Assembly: GCA_963708075.1 (NCBI GenBank)
Contig: OY970194.1
Coordinates: 7,360,001-7,424,000, forward strand
DNA: 64,000 bases
Source: Sedimentisphaerales bacterium
GTDB lineage: Bacteria > Planctomycetota > Phycisphaerae > Sedimentisphaerales > Anaerobacaceae
Reading direction: 5' to 3'
Position 1 is the stretch's first letter, and each line of letters begins with the position of its first letter. Below are positions 3,648 through 16,077 of the stretch, in pieces. A program made the position numbers and the translations under genes. Below the pieces are notes generated by a model that made no database searches, was not told the origin of the DNA, and was given only the letters and a program-made list of their open reading frames with translations.

Positions 3648-6600
3648 ATGGAATGGCGTATGAGAGCTCTGATGCCAGTGGTGTTGGCGTTCGCGCTGGC
3701 TTTGATGGGGACGTCGCGAGCATCGCTTGTGGCGCACTGGCCGCTCGATGAGACCAGTGGAACGGTTGCCGCGGACGCGGTCGGGGACAACGACGGGACG
3801 CTCTCCGGCAATCCAGTCTGGGAATCGGCGAGGGTCCGCCCCAGTGGCTCGCTGGTGTTCGATGGCAAGGATGACTACATAACGACCCGCTTTGCGCTGG
3901 ACCCGGCGAAAGGGCCGTTCAGCGCGTTTCTCTGGGCCTTGGGCAATGAGGCGGGCAAAGTCCTGATCGCCCAGCAGGACTTCGGTGGGACAGGGCAGGC
4001 GTGGCTGGTAGCAGGTACAACGAGCGCCAAGCTGGGCACGGAACTGACAGACGCCAGGGGCCAGGCCCGCGCGTTGCAGTCGGATGCCGTCCTCGCGGAT
4101 GGTCGGTGGCACCATGTCGGGGTGATCTGGGATGGGCAGTACAGACGCCTCTACCTGGACGGCGAAGAGGTGGCGGCGGACCAGGTTGCACTGGCGGATA
4201 TGAGGAGTTCGCTGGGCGGGCTGGTCATTGGGGCCTCGAAGACCCAGGACAGGTCCACGCTCTGGTCCGGCAGTATGGACGACATCCGCATCTACGATCA
4301 TGCTCTGAGTCAATCGGAGATCCGCGTGCTGGCGGGCCTCGAATCCGACCGCCAGGGCCAGCCACAGATCATGGTGGTTGCTCCCAAGACGATCTATACG
4401 GGTGCCCCGGCAGCCGTGACGGTGACAGCCATGAACGCCGACCGGTCTCCGTTGGTGGCCTCGGTGACGACCCTGCTGGCCAGCACGAAGGTCTTTGAAG
4501 GGATGACCGATGCGACCGGCCGAGTGGTCGCGAGCTTCGACACGCCGGATATCGCGCCCGGCACATACACGCTCGAAGTGCAGGTCGCCGGCATGAAAGA
4601 GTCGCTGACCGCTCAAGTGCAGGTGCGTCAGATGCCCATCGTGCTGGTCGAGACGGATAAGCCCATCTATAAGCCCGGCCAGACGATCCAGGGTCGTGCC
4701 CTGGTTCTGACGAACGAGCTTCGGCCCACGATTTCCGATGTTGCTGTCCAGATCACGGACGGCAAAGGCGTCAAGATCTTTCGCAAGGAGTTGCAGACCA
4801 ACGCATTTGGCGTTGCGCCGTTCACGCTCGACCTGGCCAGCGAGCTCAACTACGGCACGTGGAAAATCACCGCCGAGGCCGGCTCGGCCACCGGCATGGT
4901 GGATGTCCGGGTCGAGGAATACGTCCTGCCGCGATTCGAGGTCAAGGTCGAAACCGAGCGCGACTACTTCCTCGTAAACGAGCGAATCCCGGGCACCGTG
5001 CGGGCGACGTACTTCTTCGGCAAGGCCGTCGATGGCACAGTGGAGATCCACGCCAGCCGATACGTCGGCACGTGGGAAGAATATACCCGCTATACGGCTC
5101 CGCTGGTCGAAGGGGCTGCCGAGTTCGAGCTTCCCGAGGTTGGTTACGTCAGCGGCACGCCCGGTGCAGGCGGGTCGGGCAGCGTCCAACTCGATGCCAT
5201 CATCACCGACACATCGGGTCACCAGGAAAAGTCCACGAAGCTGCTCAAGATTGTCAGCTCGGGCATTGTGCATCAGCTCATTGCGGCCTCACGGTCATTT
5301 ACCCCGGGCTTGCCGTATGAGGTGTTGCTCGTGGCCGAAACCCCGGACGGCATACCTCTGTCGGTCAGTGCAGAACTGACGGCTGAATACTATTCACAGG
5401 ATGGTCGTTCGGTCCTGAAAGACAAACAATCACTATCCTTCGAGGGTTCAGCCTCGCTGACGCTGCGAGCGCCGAGGGACGCGGCCTGGGTGTACGTGCA
5501 AAGCACGGCCCGGCGTGGTAGCGAGTCGGGTCAGGCGGAGCTGTTCGTCTATGCGACGTACTCGCCCACCGACAGCTTCCTGCACCTGAGCCGGACGAGC
5601 GATGAGGCGGTGAAGGTGGGAGACGCCGTGACCATCGACGTCTTCAAAACACACGATTCGACGATCTACTATGACGTGTCTGCAAACGGGCACACCGTTT
5701 GGTCGGAAGCGACCACCGGCTCGCAGATCAGCTTCCGGGCGACACAACAGATGCTGCCTGCCGCCAAGGTCGTGGCCTATATCATCAACCCGAACAACGA
5801 GATATCCGCCGATACACTGGAGTTCAAAGTGGTTATGGATGCGGCGGCCTCGCTGACAGTGGGCTTCAACGCTGAGGAAGTCTTGCCCGGCGACCGCGTG
5901 CAGGTGTCGATAGGCGCGGGAACCGAAGCCATGGTCGGCATCGCTATCGTCGATGAATCCGTCTACGCCTTGAACGAGGGCCGGCTCAACATGCAAGCGG
6001 TTTTCGATGAGCTGGAGAAACGCTTCATGGACCCGCAGGCGGAGATCCATGCGCAGCCGTACAACTATGCGACACGCGAGGTCTTTGCCGACGCGGGCCT
6101 GCAGGTGATTACCTCGGGCGACCTCCAGGTCCCCGAGGGCCGGCAGGTGTGGGGCGGAGGCCCGATTCGCCGCGGCGACGGGACTGGTGTTGTACCGCCG
6201 GTGCCGACCGATGGCGGCTCGCTGGCCGAGGTCGCTCGCATCCGGCAGTTCTTCCCGGAGACGTGGCTGTGGACGCCGGACTTGCTCACGGACGCCAATG
6301 GTGCGGCCGTCATCGATCTGATCGCCCCGGACAGCATTACGACCTGGCGGTTGCACGCCGTCTCCACGTCTGACACCGGCCTGGGGATCGCCGAATCCTC
6401 GCTCCGCGTCTTCCAGGAATTCTTCGGCGAGCCGGACCTGCCGTACTCCGTGACGCGAGGCGAGCAGTTCCCTGTCCGCATCCAGATCTACAACTATCTC
6501 GATGAGGCACAGACCGTGCAGGTCGATCTGCGGACCGCCGAGTGGTTCAAATTGCTCGACATCGCGTCGCAGCAGGTGCGCGTGAACGCCAACTCCGTGG

Positions 6601-8315
6601 CAGCAGCCTCGTTCCTCATCGAGCCGACGAAGCTCGGCCGCAACTCGCTCGAGGTCACGCTCCGCTCCCCGCAGCGGGCAGACGGGGTCCGCAAAGAGGT
6701 CCTCGTCGAGCCCGAGGGCACGAAGCGCGAGCTGATTACGAATGGTCTGATCCGTTCCGGTGAGATCCTGCGGCTCGATGCCAACATGCCGGCGTACATC
6801 GTGCCGGACTCCGGCAAGCTGCTTCTGAACATCACGCCGAGCCTCGTCGCTCAGAGCATCAACGGTGTCGACGACCTGCTCCAGATGCCCTACGGCTGCG
6901 GCGAGCAAAACATGATCTTCTTCGCCCCCGATGTCGAGGTGCTGCGATACCTCGACGCCACGAGCCAGCTCACGCCCGAAGTTCGCGCCAAGGCCGAGCA
7001 TTTCATCACCGTCGGCTACCAGCGGGAGCTGACCTTCCGCCACAGCGACGGTTCGTTCTCCGCGTTCGGCGAGTCTGATGGCCAGCCCGGAAGCTTATGG
7101 CTTACGGCGTTCGTCCTCGACTGCTTCAGCGGCGCCCGCGAGATCACGACAGTCGATGACAGCATCCTCGCCGCAGCCGTCCAGTGGATCGCTTCCAAGC
7201 AGAAGACTGACGGCTCGTGGGACCCGGTTGGCTTCGTCATCCACAGCGACATGACGGGCGGTGTCCAGGGGAACTACACTCTTACCGCGTTTGTCACAAT
7301 CGCACTGGCGGACTATGCGTCCGCCCCGGCCGGCGTCGTGCAAGCGGCCGTGAAGTACCTCCGCGACAACATGAGCAGAATGCAGAGTGATCCGTATGCT
7401 CTGGCGATCGCGGCCCTGGCGCTGGCGAAGGCCGGGGACTCGACGGCCGATGCCGCACTGGACAACCTGCTGAGGATTGCTAAGAGCGACGCCAGCGGCA
7501 TGCACTGGGAGCCATACGCAGTAGAGACGACCGCTTATGCCGCTCTGGCATTGATGGAGAAACAGCGGCCGGAGGCGAATGAGGCCATCAAGTGGCTGTC
7601 CCTGCAGCGCAATAGCCTTGGCGGCTACGGCAACACGCAGGATACCGTGATGGGCCTCAAAGCCCTGATGACGGCGGCTCGAAACCAGAGCCGCAACGTG
7701 AACCTGACGGTGACCGTCCAGGATTCGAGGCGCGAGACGATCGCACAATTCACGGTTGACGAGAGCAACTTCGACGTCCTGCAGACTGTGGAACTGCCGC
7801 TTGAGCAGGTGATCGAGCTGGAGGCCCGGGGCACGGGCGAGGTCCGCTACCAGTTGGTCCGACGGTTCAACGTCCTGCTCAGCGATCAGACCGTGAACAA
7901 GGACATGGTTCTGGAGGTTAAGTACGATGCCGACCACGTGGAGGTCGATGACATCGTGAACGTCACTGCAACCGTCCGCTACATGGGCCTCAAGAGTTCC
8001 ACCGGCATGATGATCGTCGATGTCGGCGTGCCGACGGGCTTCGATACCGTCCGCGAGTCGCTCGACACGCTCGTTGAAGGAGGCAAAGTCACGAAGTTCG
8101 AGGTCGCCGGCCGCAAGGTGATCTTTTATCTCGACGGCCTGACGCCCCGCGAGGAGCGCTCTTTCACCTTCCAGGTCAAGGCCCGTTTCCCGGTGCGTGC
8201 CATCGTCCCGGACAGTAAGGCTTATTCTTACTACGAGCCTGACCTGCGTGCCGAGGCCATGGGTGAGGAGATCACTGTCGGTACACTGTCCCCGCAGGAG
8301 GAGCCGAAGAAGTAA
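3648..8315 (+). CDS. LamG-fused alpha-2-macroglobulin/TEP/CD109-like thioester protein
   Basis: Signal peptide; LamG ('WHHVGVIWDG','MDDIRIYDHALS'); 'ETDKPIYKPGQ','EEYVLPRFEV','RQFFPETWLW','PDSITTW'; thioester 'MPYGCGEQNM'; 'SLWLTAFV','GFVIHSDMTGG','NTQDTV','AYSYYEP'. Confidence 0.92.
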   Translation: MEWRMRALMPVVLAFALALMGTSRASLVAHWPLDETSGTVAADAVGDNDGTLSGNPVWESARVRPSGSLVFDGKDDYITTRFALDPAKGPFSAFLWALGNEAGKVLIAQQDFGGTGQAWLVAGTTSAKLGTELTDARGQARALQSDAVLADGRWHHVGVIWDGQYRRLYLDGEEVAADQVALADMRSSLGGLVIGASKTQDRSTLWSGSMDDIRIYDHALSQSEIRVLAGLESDRQGQPQIMVVAPKTIYTGAPAAVTVTAMNADRSPLVASVTTLLASTKVFEGMTDATGRVVASFDTPDIAPGTYTLEVQVAGMKESLTAQVQVRQMPIVLVETDKPIYKPGQTIQGRALVLTNELRPTISDVAVQITDGKGVKIFRKELQTNAFGVAPFTLDLASELNYGTWKITAEAGSATGMVDVRVEEYVLPRFEVKVETERDYFLVNERIPGTVRATYFFGKAVDGTVEIHASRYVGTWEEYTRYTAPLVEGAAEFELPEVGYVSGTPGAGGSGSVQLDAIITDTSGHQEKSTKLLKIVSSGIVHQLIAASRSFTPGLPYEVLLVAETPDGIPLSVSAELTAEYYSQDGRSVLKDKQSLSFEGSASLTLRAPRDAAWVYVQSTARRGSESGQAELFVYATYSPTDSFLHLSRTSDEAVKVGDAVTIDVFKTHDSTIYYDVSANGHTVWSEATTGSQISFRATQQMLPAAKVVAYIINPNNEISADTLEFKVVMDAAASLTVGFNAEEVLPGDRVQVSIGAGTEAMVGIAIVDESVYALNEGRLNMQAVFDELEKRFMDPQAEIHAQPYNYATREVFADAGLQVITSGDLQVPEGRQVWGGGPIRRGDGTGVVPPVPTDGGSLAEVARIRQFFPETWLWTPDLLTDANGAAVIDLIAPDSITTWRLHAVSTSDTGLGIAESSLRVFQEFFGEPDLPYSVTRGEQFPVRIQIYNYLDEAQTVQVDLRTAEWFKLLDIASQQVRVNANSVAAASFLIEPTKLGRNSLEVTLRSPQRADGVRKEVLVEPEGTKRELITNGLIRSGEILRLDANMPAYIVPDSGKLLLNITPSLVAQSINGVDDLLQMPYGCGEQNMIFFAPDVEVLRYLDATSQLTPEVRAKAEHFITVGYQRELTFRHSDGSFSAFGESDGQPGSLWLTAFVLDCFSGAREITTVDDSILAAAVQWIASKQKTDGSWDPVGFVIHSDMTGGVQGNYTLTAFVTIALADYASAPAGVVQAAVKYLRDNMSRMQSDPYALAIAALALAKAGDSTADAALDNLLRIAKSDASGMHWEPYAVETTAYAALALMEKQRPEANEAIKWLSLQRNSLGGYGNTQDTVMGLKALMTAARNQSRNVNLTVTVQDSRRETIAQFTVDESNFDVLQTVELPLEQVIELEARGTGEVRYQLVRRFNVLLSDQTVNKDMVLEVKYDADHVEVDDIVNVTATVRYMGLKSSTGMMIVDVGVPTGFDTVRESLDTLVEGGKVTKFEVAGRKVIFYLDGLTPREERSFTFQVKARFPVRAIVPDSKAYSYYEPDLRAEAMGEEITVGTLSPQEEPKK

Positions 8316-8321
8316 GCTGAG

Positions 8322-10127
8322 CTATCTTGAGGCGGCGTCAAGGCCGAAGGTCTCGGCTCGTCGCACGGCTGCCATGCCTTGCGATTCGGGCGTGCCGGCA
8401 TTGTAGTCCACGACCACGCCGTCCACGAGCATCCTGCTGCCATCGCGGGTCACGATGCCCCCGGCAGGGGTCAGCAGGATCAATGCGGCTGTATCCGGCC
8501 GCAGTTCCAGCGATGTTCTGCCACTGATTCGCTTGCGCACGAATGAATGTTGAGTCGTATCGTAGAGGTCCACCGGCCGGCTGCCTGCGTCCATGTGGAT
8601 TTCCCGCCTCTCATTATAAGGATTGTAGTAGAGATACGTCGGGTACGCTTCCTCGTGGAAGAAATCTGTCTTGAGGCAGTTCAACTGAAGGATTCTCTCG
8701 TCATCCGTCCGCTCCACGACGGCCGCCATCAGGCCGACGTGGCTGGAGCCGTACAGGGAGAGATCGGAAACGTACTTATGCCTGCCCCATCGGCCGCCGA
8801 GCGGGTCGCCGCACGCGCAGGGAATCTTGTCGGCGTCCTGCGGCCGCAGGCCGATGCGGCGCAGGCCCTCGTAGGCAATCACATCTCGCGAGAACTCCCG
8901 CTGGTCATAGCAGGTCTGGTTCTCAGGCGGCAGGCTGTCGGTATAGAACAGGCGGGTGGCGTTGGCGGCGTTGAGCAGCAGCTTGCCGACCGCCCGGGCA
9001 TATCTTGCGTCGTATCGCGGCAGGGGCGCCAGTGCGGCGACTAACTCGAATGTGTTCATGGCAAAGGCGTATCCGCCGCCGTCGGTGATGCTGCCCTGCA
9101 GTCCGCTGACATCGTAGCCGCCCCAGTGGCCGACGATGACTCCCCATCCCGGCCGGCATGCGTTGTTGCCGTCGAGGCACCGGTTGAGCAGTTGAGTTAC
9201 ATCATAGTCGCAGCCTTGTTCCGCATTCATCCTCGCCGCCAGCGTCACGCCGTAAGGCAGCAGGACCTCGTAAAACGTACTGCGGCCGAAGTCATCCAGC
9301 GCATCCATGGCCCGGCGAGCGGCGTCGATGTATTTCATTTCGCCGGACTTGGCCCCGGCCATATACTCGATCCACGCCACGCCGGAAGTCGCATCGCCTT
9401 CCCGCCATCGGCCGTTGAACACCGGCTCATGACGGACGAAGTCATACCCTGTGTACCACTGGCCCTCCTCCAACGCCGGCACAAGCTCCGCCACGGAATC
9501 CGCAGAACGCCGCATGTATTCATCGAGCCGGCCGTGATCCGGGTAGCAGTCGGCGAGCATGAACGCGAGCATGTTGGGGAACAGGAAATACCACATGGAG
9601 CCCGTGCCCGGCAACAGACTTGCATTGTTCGCAAAGATATCCAATCCGCCTCGGTCTTTGGGCGAGAAGTATCTCTCGCACATACGAACATAGTCATGCC
9701 CATCTTGATTTCGCTTATCGATGCCGACGAGGCGGGCGCCGACGACCGCCGCGAGGCAGTTCACAGCCTCATGCTGGCCGGGGTTCACCGCCGGTCCCTG
9801 TCGCGGATCGCCGGCGACCGTGTAGAGCCCGAACCCCTCGATGTTGCTGGTAAGGCGAGTACGGTCCTCCCAGATCAGCGGGAGAAATCGGCCTCGCGCA
9901 CCGCGGTCGAAGACCAGGGCATCATAGTCTCGCGCGACCTGTTTCCAATCCCGCATCTTGAACGGCCGGGGCATATTCGGCATCTGCTCGACGCGTGCGA
10001 TGTGGACCTGCGGCCGGGCCTCGAAAGCCCGCGCCTCCACAGCATGCAGGATGGAGCTTGCCCCACCGATTCCGTCGGATTTTGGTGGGGCAAGCCCCAC
10101 CCTACGATTCCCGGCCCCTGTCGTCAT
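8322..10127 (-). CDS. Conserved hypothetical protein, probable alpha/alpha-barrel carbohydrate-active enzyme
   Basis: About 600-aa ORF with aromatic-rich conserved-looking motifs ('GGYAFAMNTF','YPTYLYYNPY'); start uncertain. Confidence 0.55.
   Translation of the reverse strand: MTTGAGNRRVGLAPPKSDGIGGASSILHAVEARAFEARPQVHIARVEQMPNMPRPFKMRDWKQVARDYDALVFDRGARGRFLPLIWEDRTRLTSNIEGFGLYTVAGDPRQGPAVNPGQHEAVNCLAAVVGARLVGIDKRNQDGHDYVRMCERYFSPKDRGGLDIFANNASLLPGTGSMWYFLFPNMLAFMLADCYPDHGRLDEYMRRSADSVAELVPALEEGQWYTGYDFVRHEPVFNGRWREGDATSGVAWIEYMAGAKSGEMKYIDAARRAMDALDDFGRSTFYEVLLPYGVTLAARMNAEQGCDYDVTQLLNRCLDGNNACRPGWGVIVGHWGGYDVSGLQGSITDGGGYAFAMNTFELVAALAPLPRYDARYARAVGKLLLNAANATRLFYTDSLPPENQTCYDQREFSRDVIAYEGLRRIGLRPQDADKIPCACGDPLGGRWGRHKYVSDLSLYGSSHVGLMAAVVERTDDERILQLNCLKTDFFHEEAYPTYLYYNPYNERREIHMDAGSRPVDLYDTTQHSFVRKRISGRTSLELRPDTAALILLTPAGGIVTRDGSRMLVDGVVVDYNAGTPESQGMAAVRRAETFGLDAASR
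10046..10105. repeat. REPIN (inverted GTAG-type REP doublet)
   Basis: Minus strand GTAGGGTGGGGCTTGCCCCACC, 16-nt spacer, then the near-perfect inverted copy GGTGGGGCAAGCTCCATCCTGC. Confidence 0.75.
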
Positions 10128-10251
10128 AGCCCCACGCCGCCCCAACCACGCGCCGTCTCGCGTCCGACTCGACACGCCCGAGCCGCCGGAAGATCACTGC
10201 GCAGCTATTCCCCCTTATCGGTCCCGCGGGCTTTTGGGCATGAGCCTTGTG

Positions 10252-13659: not shown

Positions 13660-16077
13660 CTATTCGCTCGTTTTGAGGGCGAACGCGCGGATAGGGTTTA
13701 TCTCGGTGATCATCCGAATCGTTGCAGCATCCACGCCGGCATCGCTGAGCTTCGGAATGAATGCGTCGATCAGGTACGTGTAGGATCGCTGCGTTCCACC
13801 GTTGGGCTGGCCCGGCTGGTACCATCCAGCGTCGTGCGAGAGCAGGATGCGGTCGCCATAGCCGGCGGCGAGCAGGTCCTTGATGGCCGTGATAAGCGTG
13901 GAATCCTGCCCGGGATTCGAGCCGAGGGAGTCAAACTCGACAAATACGCCGCGTGCGGCCAGTTGGCGCTGCATGTCGCGGTTGTTCTCGCTTTGGGCAT
14001 GGACCCAGATGAATCGGATCGCCGGGTCGATGGATTGCAGGATCGCAATCTGCCTGGATGCATTGCTGCTGACCGGCGTGTGGCTGGCGACGGCGGCACC
14101 CGTTTCGCTCGCGGCGCGGCCGGCGGCTCGCAGGAATTTCTCCTCCAGCGGGGTCATGGCGCCGCTGCCCGTGGCGGTTTTGATGAAGCCGGCCTTGATG
14201 CCTGTGCTCTCGATGCCCTCGCGAATCTCACGAATGAACAGAGTGGTCAATTCATCCTCGCTCATGTTCCGGTGCTCCGGCGGGGCGAAATTGTCCCGGC
14301 CGTACACGCCCGTCGGCACCACCACGGGCAACGCCGACTCCCGCGCCACCTGATCAATGATGGTCACGTTTCGGCCTACGCCGATGCTGCTGCACTCGAT
14401 CAGGACGCCCACACCCTTCTCGCGAGCGGCCATAAGCCATGGCTTCATGATGCGCACGACATCTGCGGGGTTGGCCTGGCCGTAGCCGGCTACGGTGGGA
14501 CCGCGCAAATCGGTGAAGATATGCTCGTGGGGCAGAATGACGCCCAGCCCCTCGGCGAGCAGGGGACCCTGGGTCGTGATGAACTGCCATCGCGTGTCGG
14601 ACTTGCTCGCCTCAATGGTGCCACCATAAACGCCCATGTTGGCCCGACTGCCGTTGGGCAGGGGCTCATCGTCGAATGCCAGCACCGGGTTTCCGGCGTC
14701 GATGCAGGGACTGGTCACCGCAACCTGCACCCATGCCTGGGTCGCAGGGTCCCATCGGCCCGCGCGCGACTTCAGATGGTAGTCGCCAGGCACGAAGAGA
14801 TCGTCGTTGGGGTCGTCCGGCGTGTCATTGGCGTCCCAGTATCCTGCATCGGCGAAGCAGGGGTCGGCATCGATGTTGCCCGGTCCCCAGGTCATCGTTC
14901 GCCTCGGATCGCTGACGGTCGACTTGCCGCCCACCACATCCGTGTACTGAATCATCAGAGCGGCATAGCCGTTCGATATCTCATTGCCGTCGTTGGCCAG
15001 GATGCAGCTATCCACGCGGATCGACGGAGGCGGCGACCCCCGGCCGGGACGCGCAGAGTTGTCTGACAGGAACTGACCCTCTGGGGCGGTATTACCCGCC
15101 GCCGTACAGTTCTGCACCTTCGCAGACCCGTTCTCGTTGTAGAGTACCCCGCCGCCTTTACTTGCGGCATTGCCGACCGCCAGGCAATTCACCATTTCCA
15201 CGCGCCCGAAGCTGGTGCTGTGGATACATCCACCCCACGTCGCTTGATTGCCTCGGAATACGCAACCTGTCAGAACTGCCTTGCCTCTAAGCATAATGGC
15301 CCCGCCCTGTCCTACAGGGAGCCTACTGTAGAGTCCCGCCACGTTCCTCTCAAATGTACAGCCCGTAAGCAGCACATCCTCCTCCAGTTGATCGGCAGAG
15401 AATTCCTCTGCCAGTGCTCCTCCTCCGGATGCTGCGAAGTTGGCTTTGAATACGCAGTCACGGATAGTGATGCCGGCTCCCATGACTATCGCTCCGCCGC
15501 CAAGTGGCACATCCGGGTCAAAGCCATCCTCGAGAGGCACAACCCAGGAATGGGCATGACCACCGGTGATTGTCATGCCGTCCAGGAGAGCAGACCCGGT
15601 GATGGCAACCACATGTTGGGAATTGTCCATCCGCGTCGGCTCATGCATCAGCTTGTTGGGATCGAGGACGTCCACATCGTTGCCCGCCAGGTCGCCGGAG
15701 AGGATCGTCGGGTATGCGACGACATCCCGAAGATTCGGGTCGGCTGCCCCGACTCCGGCGTAGCTGCCTGCCACGTGGACCCCCTGGGTGACAACAAACG
15801 CCGTTTGACGGTCGTCGCTGCCCTCAGGGTTTGCGTTGTTCTGATCCGGCTTGTACGTTCCCTGGGCCACCCGAACTTCCAGCGGCCAGTCCGACGACCT
15901 CAGCATCAGGGGAACAAGGGCGTCCTGCAAATGCCTGTAGGCCGTGGCCCACGACCTGCCATTCCCGCCCGCCGGTGCATCGTCATCGACATAAATAACC
16001 GGATCGAGTGCCCACACCGGCATTGTCCCTGCCAGGATCAGTCCCAGCACGACCATGTAAATGTATGTGTGTTTCAT
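13660..16077 (-). CDS. Secreted beta-helix (pectin lyase-like) domain fused to phosphotriesterase-family amidohydrolase
   Basis: 'YVDDDA..NGRSWATAY','GGGA' repeats,'SPCIDAG'; PTE ligands 'PHEH','GFIKT','ASHT','WVHA','LSHD'. Confidence 0.8.
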   Translation of the reverse strand: MKHTYIYMVVLGLILAGTMPVWALDPVIYVDDDAPAGGNGRSWATAYRHLQDALVPLMLRSSDWPLEVRVAQGTYKPDQNNANPEGSDDRQTAFVVTQGVHVAGSYAGVGAADPNLRDVVAYPTILSGDLAGNDVDVLDPNKLMHEPTRMDNSQHVVAITGSALLDGMTITGGHAHSWVVPLEDGFDPDVPLGGGAIVMGAGITIRDCVFKANFAASGGGALAEEFSADQLEEDVLLTGCTFERNVAGLYSRLPVGQGGAIMLRGKAVLTGCVFRGNQATWGGCIHSTSFGRVEMVNCLAVGNAASKGGGVLYNENGSAKVQNCTAAGNTAPEGQFLSDNSARPGRGSPPPSIRVDSCILANDGNEISNGYAALMIQYTDVVGGKSTVSDPRRTMTWGPGNIDADPCFADAGYWDANDTPDDPNDDLFVPGDYHLKSRAGRWDPATQAWVQVAVTSPCIDAGNPVLAFDDEPLPNGSRANMGVYGGTIEASKSDTRWQFITTQGPLLAEGLGVILPHEHIFTDLRGPTVAGYGQANPADVVRIMKPWLMAAREKGVGVLIECSSIGVGRNVTIIDQVARESALPVVVPTGVYGRDNFAPPEHRNMSEDELTTLFIREIREGIESTGIKAGFIKTATGSGAMTPLEEKFLRAAGRAASETGAAVASHTPVSSNASRQIAILQSIDPAIRFIWVHAQSENNRDMQRQLAARGVFVEFDSLGSNPGQDSTLITAIKDLLAAGYGDRILLSHDAGWYQPGQPNGGTQRSYTYLIDAFIPKLSDAGVDAATIRMITEINPIRAFALKTSE

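Follow-up and report, generated by a model that had tools for sequence, protein, structure and literature searches.

An animal-type thioester protein of a Sedimentisphaerales bacterium belongs to a large prokaryotic family that has been little described

Results

The gene under study occupies positions 3648..8315 (+ strand) of the window, by which we mean the whole 64-kb stretch of DNA that was analysed. It is an ORF of 1555 codons, whose product (hereafter the query) is identified by its motifs, Pfam matches and alignments as an animal-type thioester protein, with a body resembling CD109 and A2ML1 and a LamG head. A preliminary description of this locus had listed a series of animal-style motifs (FPETWLW, GYQRELTF, DGSFSAFG, SLWLTAFV and NTQDT), a GCGEQ thioester motif with its Cys codon at 6897, a His codon at 7242 that is 115 residues downstream, an N-terminal LamG domain, and a signal peptide without a lipobox. 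All of these are found in the 1555-aa translation, in which Pfam matches Laminin_G_3, MG2, MG3, A2M_BRD, A2M, TED and A2M_recep.

The first 25 residues (3648..3722, +) form a probable Sec signal peptide ending in S-R-A, its cleavage site having been placed by eye from hydropathy rather than with a predictor. It overlaps the single hydrophobic stretch in the protein (residues 5-29). Since the protein contains only two Cys residues, Cys1084 and Cys1159, the lipobox Cys is absent. The C-terminus is polar and Cys-free, and consequently displays neither a GPI signal nor a C-terminal cysteine signature. The signal peptide is followed by the LamG/concanavalin-like head (residues about 26-229; 3723..4334, +), which is matched by PF13385 (Laminin_G_3) over residues 72-225 with an E-value of 5e-21 and a score of 75.8 bits, against a cut-off of 27.6.

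As for the body, it starts with an MG1-MG6a ring and linker (residues about 237-830, with approximate boundaries; 4356..6137, +), as defined by alignments and by the MG2, MG3 and A2M_BRD matches. In the alignments its start coincides with that of MG1 in human A2M, and the extra N-terminal MG domains of bacterial proteins are absent, according to both Pfam and the alignments with solved relatives. A bait region (6138..6236, +) and an RQFF plug motif (6243..6254, +) come next. The thioester domain (TED, residues 1066-1341; 6843..7670, +), which is helical in our AlphaFold2 model and matches PF07678 with 256 bits, contains the GCGEQ motif (residues 1083-1087; 6894..6908, +), with Cys1084 and Gln1087, and a His1199-x-Asp1201 motif (7242..7250, +). 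The last domain, MG8 (7899..8282, +; A2M_recep match over residues 1451-1537), contains Met1454, Tyr1494 and Tyr1528. The protein therefore shows the MG1-MG8/CUB/TED order, including MG3 and A2M_recep, of the animal-type A2M fold, the part of this order that was modeled in 3D being residues 864-1545.

The upstream neighbour encodes a DUF5060 protein and is shared with three relatives (at loci L001, L002 and L027). On the other side, a 617-aa ORF (8322-10175, -), to which Pfam at E 0.01 assigns no family, converges with the query gene across a gap of six bases. Further downstream, an 805-aa protein (13660-16077, -) consists of a beta-helix/disaggregatase-related region fused to a phosphotriesterase-family domain.

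The key residues were compared in an alignment of the query with gibbon C3, fish CD109, an amphioxus A2M-like protein, Trichoplax CD109, two prokaryotic homologues and a Pyramimonas protein. Cys1084 aligns with Cys1010 of C3 and His1199 with His1126, which places His1199-x-Asp1201 in the same column as His1126-x-Glu1128 of C3. Met1454, Tyr1494 and Tyr1528 align with Met1400, Tyr1447 and Tyr1482 of the gibbon C3 precursor, the MG8 residues that we take to be the shields of the C3 thioester. Human A2M carries an Asn in the His column of the alignment with solved relatives, as the preliminary description had stated. Arg866 and Phe869 in the RQFF motif, the counterparts of Arg732 and Phe735 in A2M, match together with a YVL linker the plug-in-channel residues of A2M, while the linker-helix position aligns less well. 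Mutation of the plug-in-channel residues is reported to destabilise native A2M (PMC9352918).

The Gly/Pro/Arg-rich stretch right before the plug (residues about 831-863) is the least conserved part of the body. Among 69 close homologues, it differs in length and make-up, and mean identity drops to 0.36 in the window of residues 840-864, the lowest of 53 such windows, before rising to 0.74 and 0.86 in the following two. We therefore read this stretch as a bait, as had been proposed. Together, the alignments indicate that the thioester machine is intact, with thioester, His, trigger and shielding residues all present.

That the query is of the animal type rather than the YfhM type, as initially described, is evident from domain composition. 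Six bMG families (bMG1/2/3/5/6/10) and a TED score of 33 bits were obtained with Pfam for Escherichia coli YfhM, which was used as a control, whereas the query matches no bMG family and its TED scores 256 bits. The same genome possesses a canonical YfhM-type gene (C1:7175264-7182710) followed by pbp1C, and a 2022-aa bMG10-type macroglobulin without a CxEQ motif (L082:8668-14736), so the query represents a third kind of macroglobulin in this genome. No PBP1C homologue is found within the 64-kb window, in line with the earlier remark that a pbp1C neighbour is lacking; the pbp1C of the genome adjoins the separate YfhM-type gene. At two of 80 related loci (L028:1-8223 and L029), pbp1C is immediately followed by the animal-type gene. 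At L028, a YfhM-type gene precedes pbp1C, which brings two kinds of macroglobulin side by side.

Among proteins of solved structure, the best sequence match is human CD109 (E 3e-125, over query residues 326-1535), followed by A2M and A2ML1, which rank ahead of C3, C4 and TEP1. No bacterial A2M is present among the 60 matches listed, out of 80. The similarity of the query sequence to animal thioester proteins is far beyond chance. We modeled residues 864-1545 with AlphaFold2, using an alignment of 27 sequences (pLDDT 84, pTM 0.58). The model is most similar to native A2ML1 (TM-score 0.74) and native CD109 (0.72), with much lower scores for active CD109 (0.42) and C3b (0.38), and is thus native-like. 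In native C3, the His is kept away from the thioester until activation. Since our model is native-like, the distance between His and thioester within it, which had been proposed as a check, is not a fair test.

We scored 7999 candidate homologues, of which the best 120 were listed. In these 120 proteins, GCGEQ is invariant (120/120), the His loop pattern is found in all but P0066 and P0077 (118/120), in which the loop is divergent, and an acidic residue is present two positions past the His in 115. The nearest named homologues are from Anaerobaca lacustris and from Sedimentisphaerales or Phycisphaerae assemblies, in line with a planctomycete host of the order Sedimentisphaerales, and the 120 include proteins that are 90-92% identical to the query in other assemblies. 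In GTDB genomes, 418 pattern matches yielded 369 confirmed stretches. The 80 that were listed are from Sedimentisphaerales, Phycisphaerae, other planctomycete-labelled assemblies, Omnitrophota, Hydrogenedentota, Methanosarcinales, Altiarchaeales and unlabelled bacteria. Additional named members are from Chloroflexota (Dehalogenimonas, Dehalococcoidia and Anaerolineae), Bathyarchaeota, Acidobacteriota, Atribacteria and Undinarchaeales. A later search produced 119 new proteins, 14 of which were set aside as eukaryotic based on name, Cys content or a GPI-like tail. The 105 prokaryote-type proteins that were kept have a His in 104 cases and an Asn in one, with an acidic residue two positions later in 104. 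The preliminary description had warned that some prokaryotes may already have proteins of this sort, and rightly so, since hundreds of bacterial and archaeal members retain, as judged from their sequences, both thioester and His.

The distribution of the family is patchy. In the order, 21 of 151 genomes match at E <= 1e-20, of which 11 (own genome included) do so at 63-100% identity, and neither of the two congeners searched (97% and 94% complete) has a match. In the phylum, A2M_recep is found in 46 of 301 genomes versus none of 14 control genomes. No conserved partner gene is found across the 80 related loci, whether protease, receptor, lectin or signalling gene. A more distant prokaryotic group, characterised by GCFEQ, accounts for 90 of the 147 new proteins in another search, and a rough pattern finds a His in the loop of 45 of these 90.

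Several members have unusual architectures. The GCFEQ group (P0150-P0267) is widespread, has A2M_recep and a variable His, and some of its proteins display anti-sigma-like N-termini; P0150 has a T2SSG-like insert ahead of the bait. Within the query family, P0271 starts with an ArsR-type helix-turn-helix domain, and P0384, a Chloroflexota-type member, carries Asn at the His position, like human A2M, and has C-terminal PQQ-type propeller domains. Planctomycetota genomes also contain many frames of ~455-505 aa with A2M_recep (e.g., G325:C1:8387207-8387464 and G293:C177:10947-11195). This is the size of a thioester plus MG8 piece, and these frames are perhaps split or minimal thioester proteins.

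A survey of N-terminal domains in homologues, as suggested in the preliminary description, upholds the LamG head in the query but not as a feature of the family. LamG is found in 23 of the best 120 proteins, or 23 of the 104 with a complete N-terminus, and all 23 rank among the 80 closest. Of the 105 prokaryote-type proteins from the later search, 93 are N-complete, and 82 of these match a crude lipobox pattern. The proteins at L001, L002 and L027, beside the same upstream DUF5060 gene, are 1341-1348 aa long, which is too short for LamG. Other add-ons include dockerin-like tails (27 of the best 120 by pattern, with a Pfam Dockerin_1 match in P0072) and TIG or PQQ-propeller domains. Judging from these architectures, LamG is one of several exchangeable add-ons. 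There are 91 LamG-like domains in 80 ORFs of the genome, and the seven nearest are C-terminal tails of unrelated proteins of 516-873 aa. The head has a lectin-like fold and is at most a putative sugar-binding domain.

When the divergent match P0268 was used for searching, proteins named Pyramimonas and Cymbomonas (green algae), and Polarella and Gymnodinium (dinoflagellates) were found. These proteins (P0319, P0334, P0325, P0347 and P0298) have GCGEQ, the His and 5-15 Cys, and several, namely the complete ones, have GPI-like tails. They are unlikely to be bacterial contamination since our trees group them by lineage. For these trees, the MG6b-to-MG8 region was taken from 98 proteins; long, partial and redundant rows were dropped and full C3 was added, leaving 70 and then 52 rows. 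The main tree (52 rows, 609 columns, LG+C20+F+G4) has no outgroup and is unrooted; supports are bootstrap/SH-aLRT. In it, 5 of the 9 non-animal eukaryote rows and 7 of the 11 non-C3 animal rows were nameless and had to be assigned from their appearance, C3 rows are from vertebrates only, the sampling leaves out C4, C5, CPAMD8, sponges and choanoflagellates, and several rows are compositionally skewed.

YfhM types form a separate branch in this tree (100/100), as does the GCFEQ group (100/99), while the query family and eukaryotes are grouped together (100/99). The eukaryotes form one group (100/98), in which algal and dinoflagellate proteins are next to the animal ones (95/99), and which joins a Chloroflexota-type subgroup of seven rows (100/100). 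The query clusters with proteins of the Anaerobaca type, one step removed from the subgroup that is closest to the eukaryotes. Alternative groupings were evaluated by AU tests on 34 rows (LG+G4). Grouping the query with YfhM, which would have contradicted the preliminary description, is rejected (p-AU 0.011), as is grouping CD109-type animals with the query family (p-AU 2.7e-5) or with all prokaryotic rows (p-AU 0.003), or the query family with animals without the algae (p-AU 6e-5). Holding the prokaryotic family together as one group is retained with these 34 rows (p 0.087) and rejected with 25 rows without YfhM under a mixture model (p 0.0004). In the 25-row tree, C3 separates from the other animals, which counts against a reading in which the eukaryotes arise as one branch among the prokaryotic proteins. 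These sequence comparisons suggest that the eukaryotic proteins are one branch (100/98) arising among the prokaryotic proteins of the query family, in an unrooted tree; it is less certain whether that family is paraphyletic or instead the sister group of the eukaryotes. The root may instead lie inside the eukaryotes, with one early transfer to prokaryotes.

The best solved and the best named eukaryotic matches of the query are animal proteins, as would be expected after a recent transfer from an animal or if animal DNA were present in the assembly. We regard this origin as exceedingly improbable. The gene is a single intron-free ORF within a single 7.5-Mb contig and its GC (0.62-0.63) is similar to the rest of the window; there are homologues in other assemblies at the high identity given above, the upstream neighbour is common to relatives, and grouping of the query with animals is rejected (p-AU 8e-7).

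Discussion

The query is encoded by a real, intact gene and belongs to a large family of prokaryotic thioester proteins of the animal type that has received little description. We think that it is probably a secreted and, probably, monomeric covalent protease trap, triggered through its bait in the manner of CD109 and A2ML1. It would be exported via Sec, and the conserved residues and native-like model suggest a resting state in which the RQFF plug occupies the MG2-MG3-linker channel while MG8 shields the Cys1084-Gln1087 thioester. Cleavage of the exposed, fast-evolving bait loop by a foreign protease would then make the plug retract and the thioester domain swing out. His1199, aided by Asp1201, would form an acyl-imidazole and the acyl group would be passed to whichever hydroxyl or amine is closest, in most cases one of the cleaving protease itself. 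Once tethered, the protease would have difficulty in getting at large substrates of the cell envelope. The optional LamG would at most help to retain the trap close to the surface, a role that lipid anchors or dockerin-like tails may play in relatives. This upholds as probable, from signal peptide and bait-like linker, the earlier view that the protein is secreted and protease-triggered.

We favour a trap because the closest solved relatives, CD109 (PMC12927315) and A2ML1 (PMC9156758), are described as monomeric inhibitors whose activity requires thioester conjugation, and because our model fits their native forms. In addition, the bait is variable, there is no anaphylatoxin or C345C domain, there are no partner genes, many relatives are surface-anchored, and the plug, MG2-MG3 linker, thioester, His and three MG8 residues align with C3, CD109 and A2M-like proteins. 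Similarly, the position directly downstream of pbp1C at two of 80 loci, with a YfhM-type gene preceding pbp1C at L028, favours a trap, and the absence of a conserved partner at the 80 loci fits a stand-alone inhibitor rather than a cascade. What counts against a trap is that the same machine serves in the opsonins C3, C4B and mosquito TEP1 (PMC5489563), the attacked nucleophile being unreadable from sequence; that the His hardly ever varies, even though a thioester reactive with amines alone would be enough to trap proteases; and that a YfhM-pbp1C pair is already present in the genome, so that a third A2M may serve otherwise.

A complement- or TEP1-like covalent tag or adhesin, which upon cleavage would be deposited on polysaccharide particles, other cells or phage coats under the guidance of LamG, strikes us as rather unlikely. 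Such a role would make use of the nearly invariant His-x-Asp/Glu, a His of this kind giving hydroxyl reactivity in C3, C4B and A2ML1 (PMC9156758), and would be in keeping with the lectin-like LamG fold and nearby genes of sugar-active enzyme families. It was from the His that the preliminary description had derived an opsonin or covalent adhesin, a step that is not supported, since A2ML1 (PMC9156758) and CD109 (PMC12927315) have the His and yet inhibit proteases. Its presence is compatible with a trap as well as with a tag. Nor is LamG, also seen as the aiming part, well supported in that role: it is missing in 81 of 104 N-complete homologues and in the short relatives beside the same DUF5060 gene, and is a common module of this genome that, at the nearest sites, tails unrelated proteins. 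Moreover, neither an anaphylatoxin or C345C domain nor a conserved protease, receptor or lectin partner (80 loci) accompanies the query, and prokaryotes have no phagocyte to read tags. Hydroxyl-directed chemistry would equally suit glycans of the cell's own envelope or S-layer, and cut CD109 leaves its anchor (PMC12927315), which raises the idea that a host protease triggers covalent self-anchoring, or that proteolysis is sensed by the change in shape. The occurrence of the family in archaea and Chloroflexota, whose envelopes are very different, might be added in favour. We find this quite improbable, as cleavage by one particular host protease should keep the cut site conserved, while the bait is the most variable part, many members are already lipid-anchored according to their lipobox-like pattern, and no signalling neighbour is conserved at the 80 loci.

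The relatives in bacteria, archaea and algae suggest that the family is older than animals. We propose further, with our judgement evenly divided between belief and doubt, that the His-catalysed, plug-triggered thioester machine of C3, CD109 and insect TEPs arose, complete, in prokaryotes, the query being part of a living prokaryotic stem group. One lineage, nearest the Chloroflexota-type lipoproteins, would have entered early eukaryotes and survived in green algae, dinoflagellates and animals, the last having inherited the machine rather than invented or donated it, while some prokaryotes, such as the owner of the LamG-headed query, may tag surfaces covalently. If true, the origin of complement chemistry predates animals and the supposed direction of transfer is reversed. 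What most deserves attention is the basal placement of the family relative to the eukaryotic thioester proteins, along with its algal members; the LamG fusion and opsonin idea are weak, and LamG alone is of little interest. Since prokaryotic members are nearly Cys-free and some have cultured hosts (Anaerobaca, Methanolobus and Dehalogenimonas), the ancestral function, trap or tag, is open to direct testing.

The tree conflicts with published views. One paper proposes an origin of the A2M superfamily in animals, after the sponge split (PMC9156758), another gives metazoans and Gram-negative bacteria as its hosts (PMC12939704), and bacterial A2Ms have been described as structurally distinct and perhaps animal-derived (PMC9156758, PMC13069473, PMC3735191). 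In the full-text literature searched, which takes in only a minority of subscription journals and not Budd et al. 2004, we found no description of an animal-type, His-bearing prokaryotic or algal family. Many members among the best 120 of 7999 are nevertheless annotated by JGI as "CD109 antigen".

How, then, does the query compare with known systems? A set of 27 archaeal TED proteins with CxEQ was compiled by Makarova et al. 2021 (PMC8416519), who describe the Methanomicrobia homologues as close kin of bacterial A2Ms that were obtained from bacteria. A stretch of one of these in the supplement, WP_015053894.1 from Methanolobus psychrophilus, matches P0110, which is 55% identical to the query. 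The Methanomicrobia proteins therein thus belong to the same family, but are lipoprotein-like and lack LamG; the passages on them mention neither the His nor a kinship with animal proteins. With Type I bacterial A2M (YfhM/ECAM), the query shares a CxEQ thioester, the MG/TED/CUB scaffold, a bait and probably the job. It differs by the absence of a lipobox Cys, which is a feature of Type I proteins (PMC3735191), of a pbp1C neighbour and of bMG domains, and by not grouping with YfhM.

As for C3, C4B and TEP1, the Cys, His and MG8 Met/Tyr/Tyr of C3 align with the query, yet C3 and TEP1 score below CD109 and A2M. Pfam detects no anaphylatoxin or C345C domain in the query, both being found in the C3 rows searched. 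In the position of the C3 anaphylatoxin there is an unstructured, length-variable bait, and no convertase partners are found near the query gene. Human A2ML1 (PDB 7Q1Y), for which reactivity with amines and hydroxyls through its His is reported (PMC9156758), is the top fold match, at about 31% identity, the query being without disulfides and with a LamG head. Human CD109 (PDB 8S3O native, 9FX3 active) differs by its GPI tail, its disulfide network, its lack of an N-terminal LamG, its host and its place within the animal clade, outside of which the query falls in our trees. The query nonetheless shares with CD109 a thioester, a bait, the MG1-MG8/CUB/TED layout and a His loop of the form VIHS-[DE]-x-x-GG.
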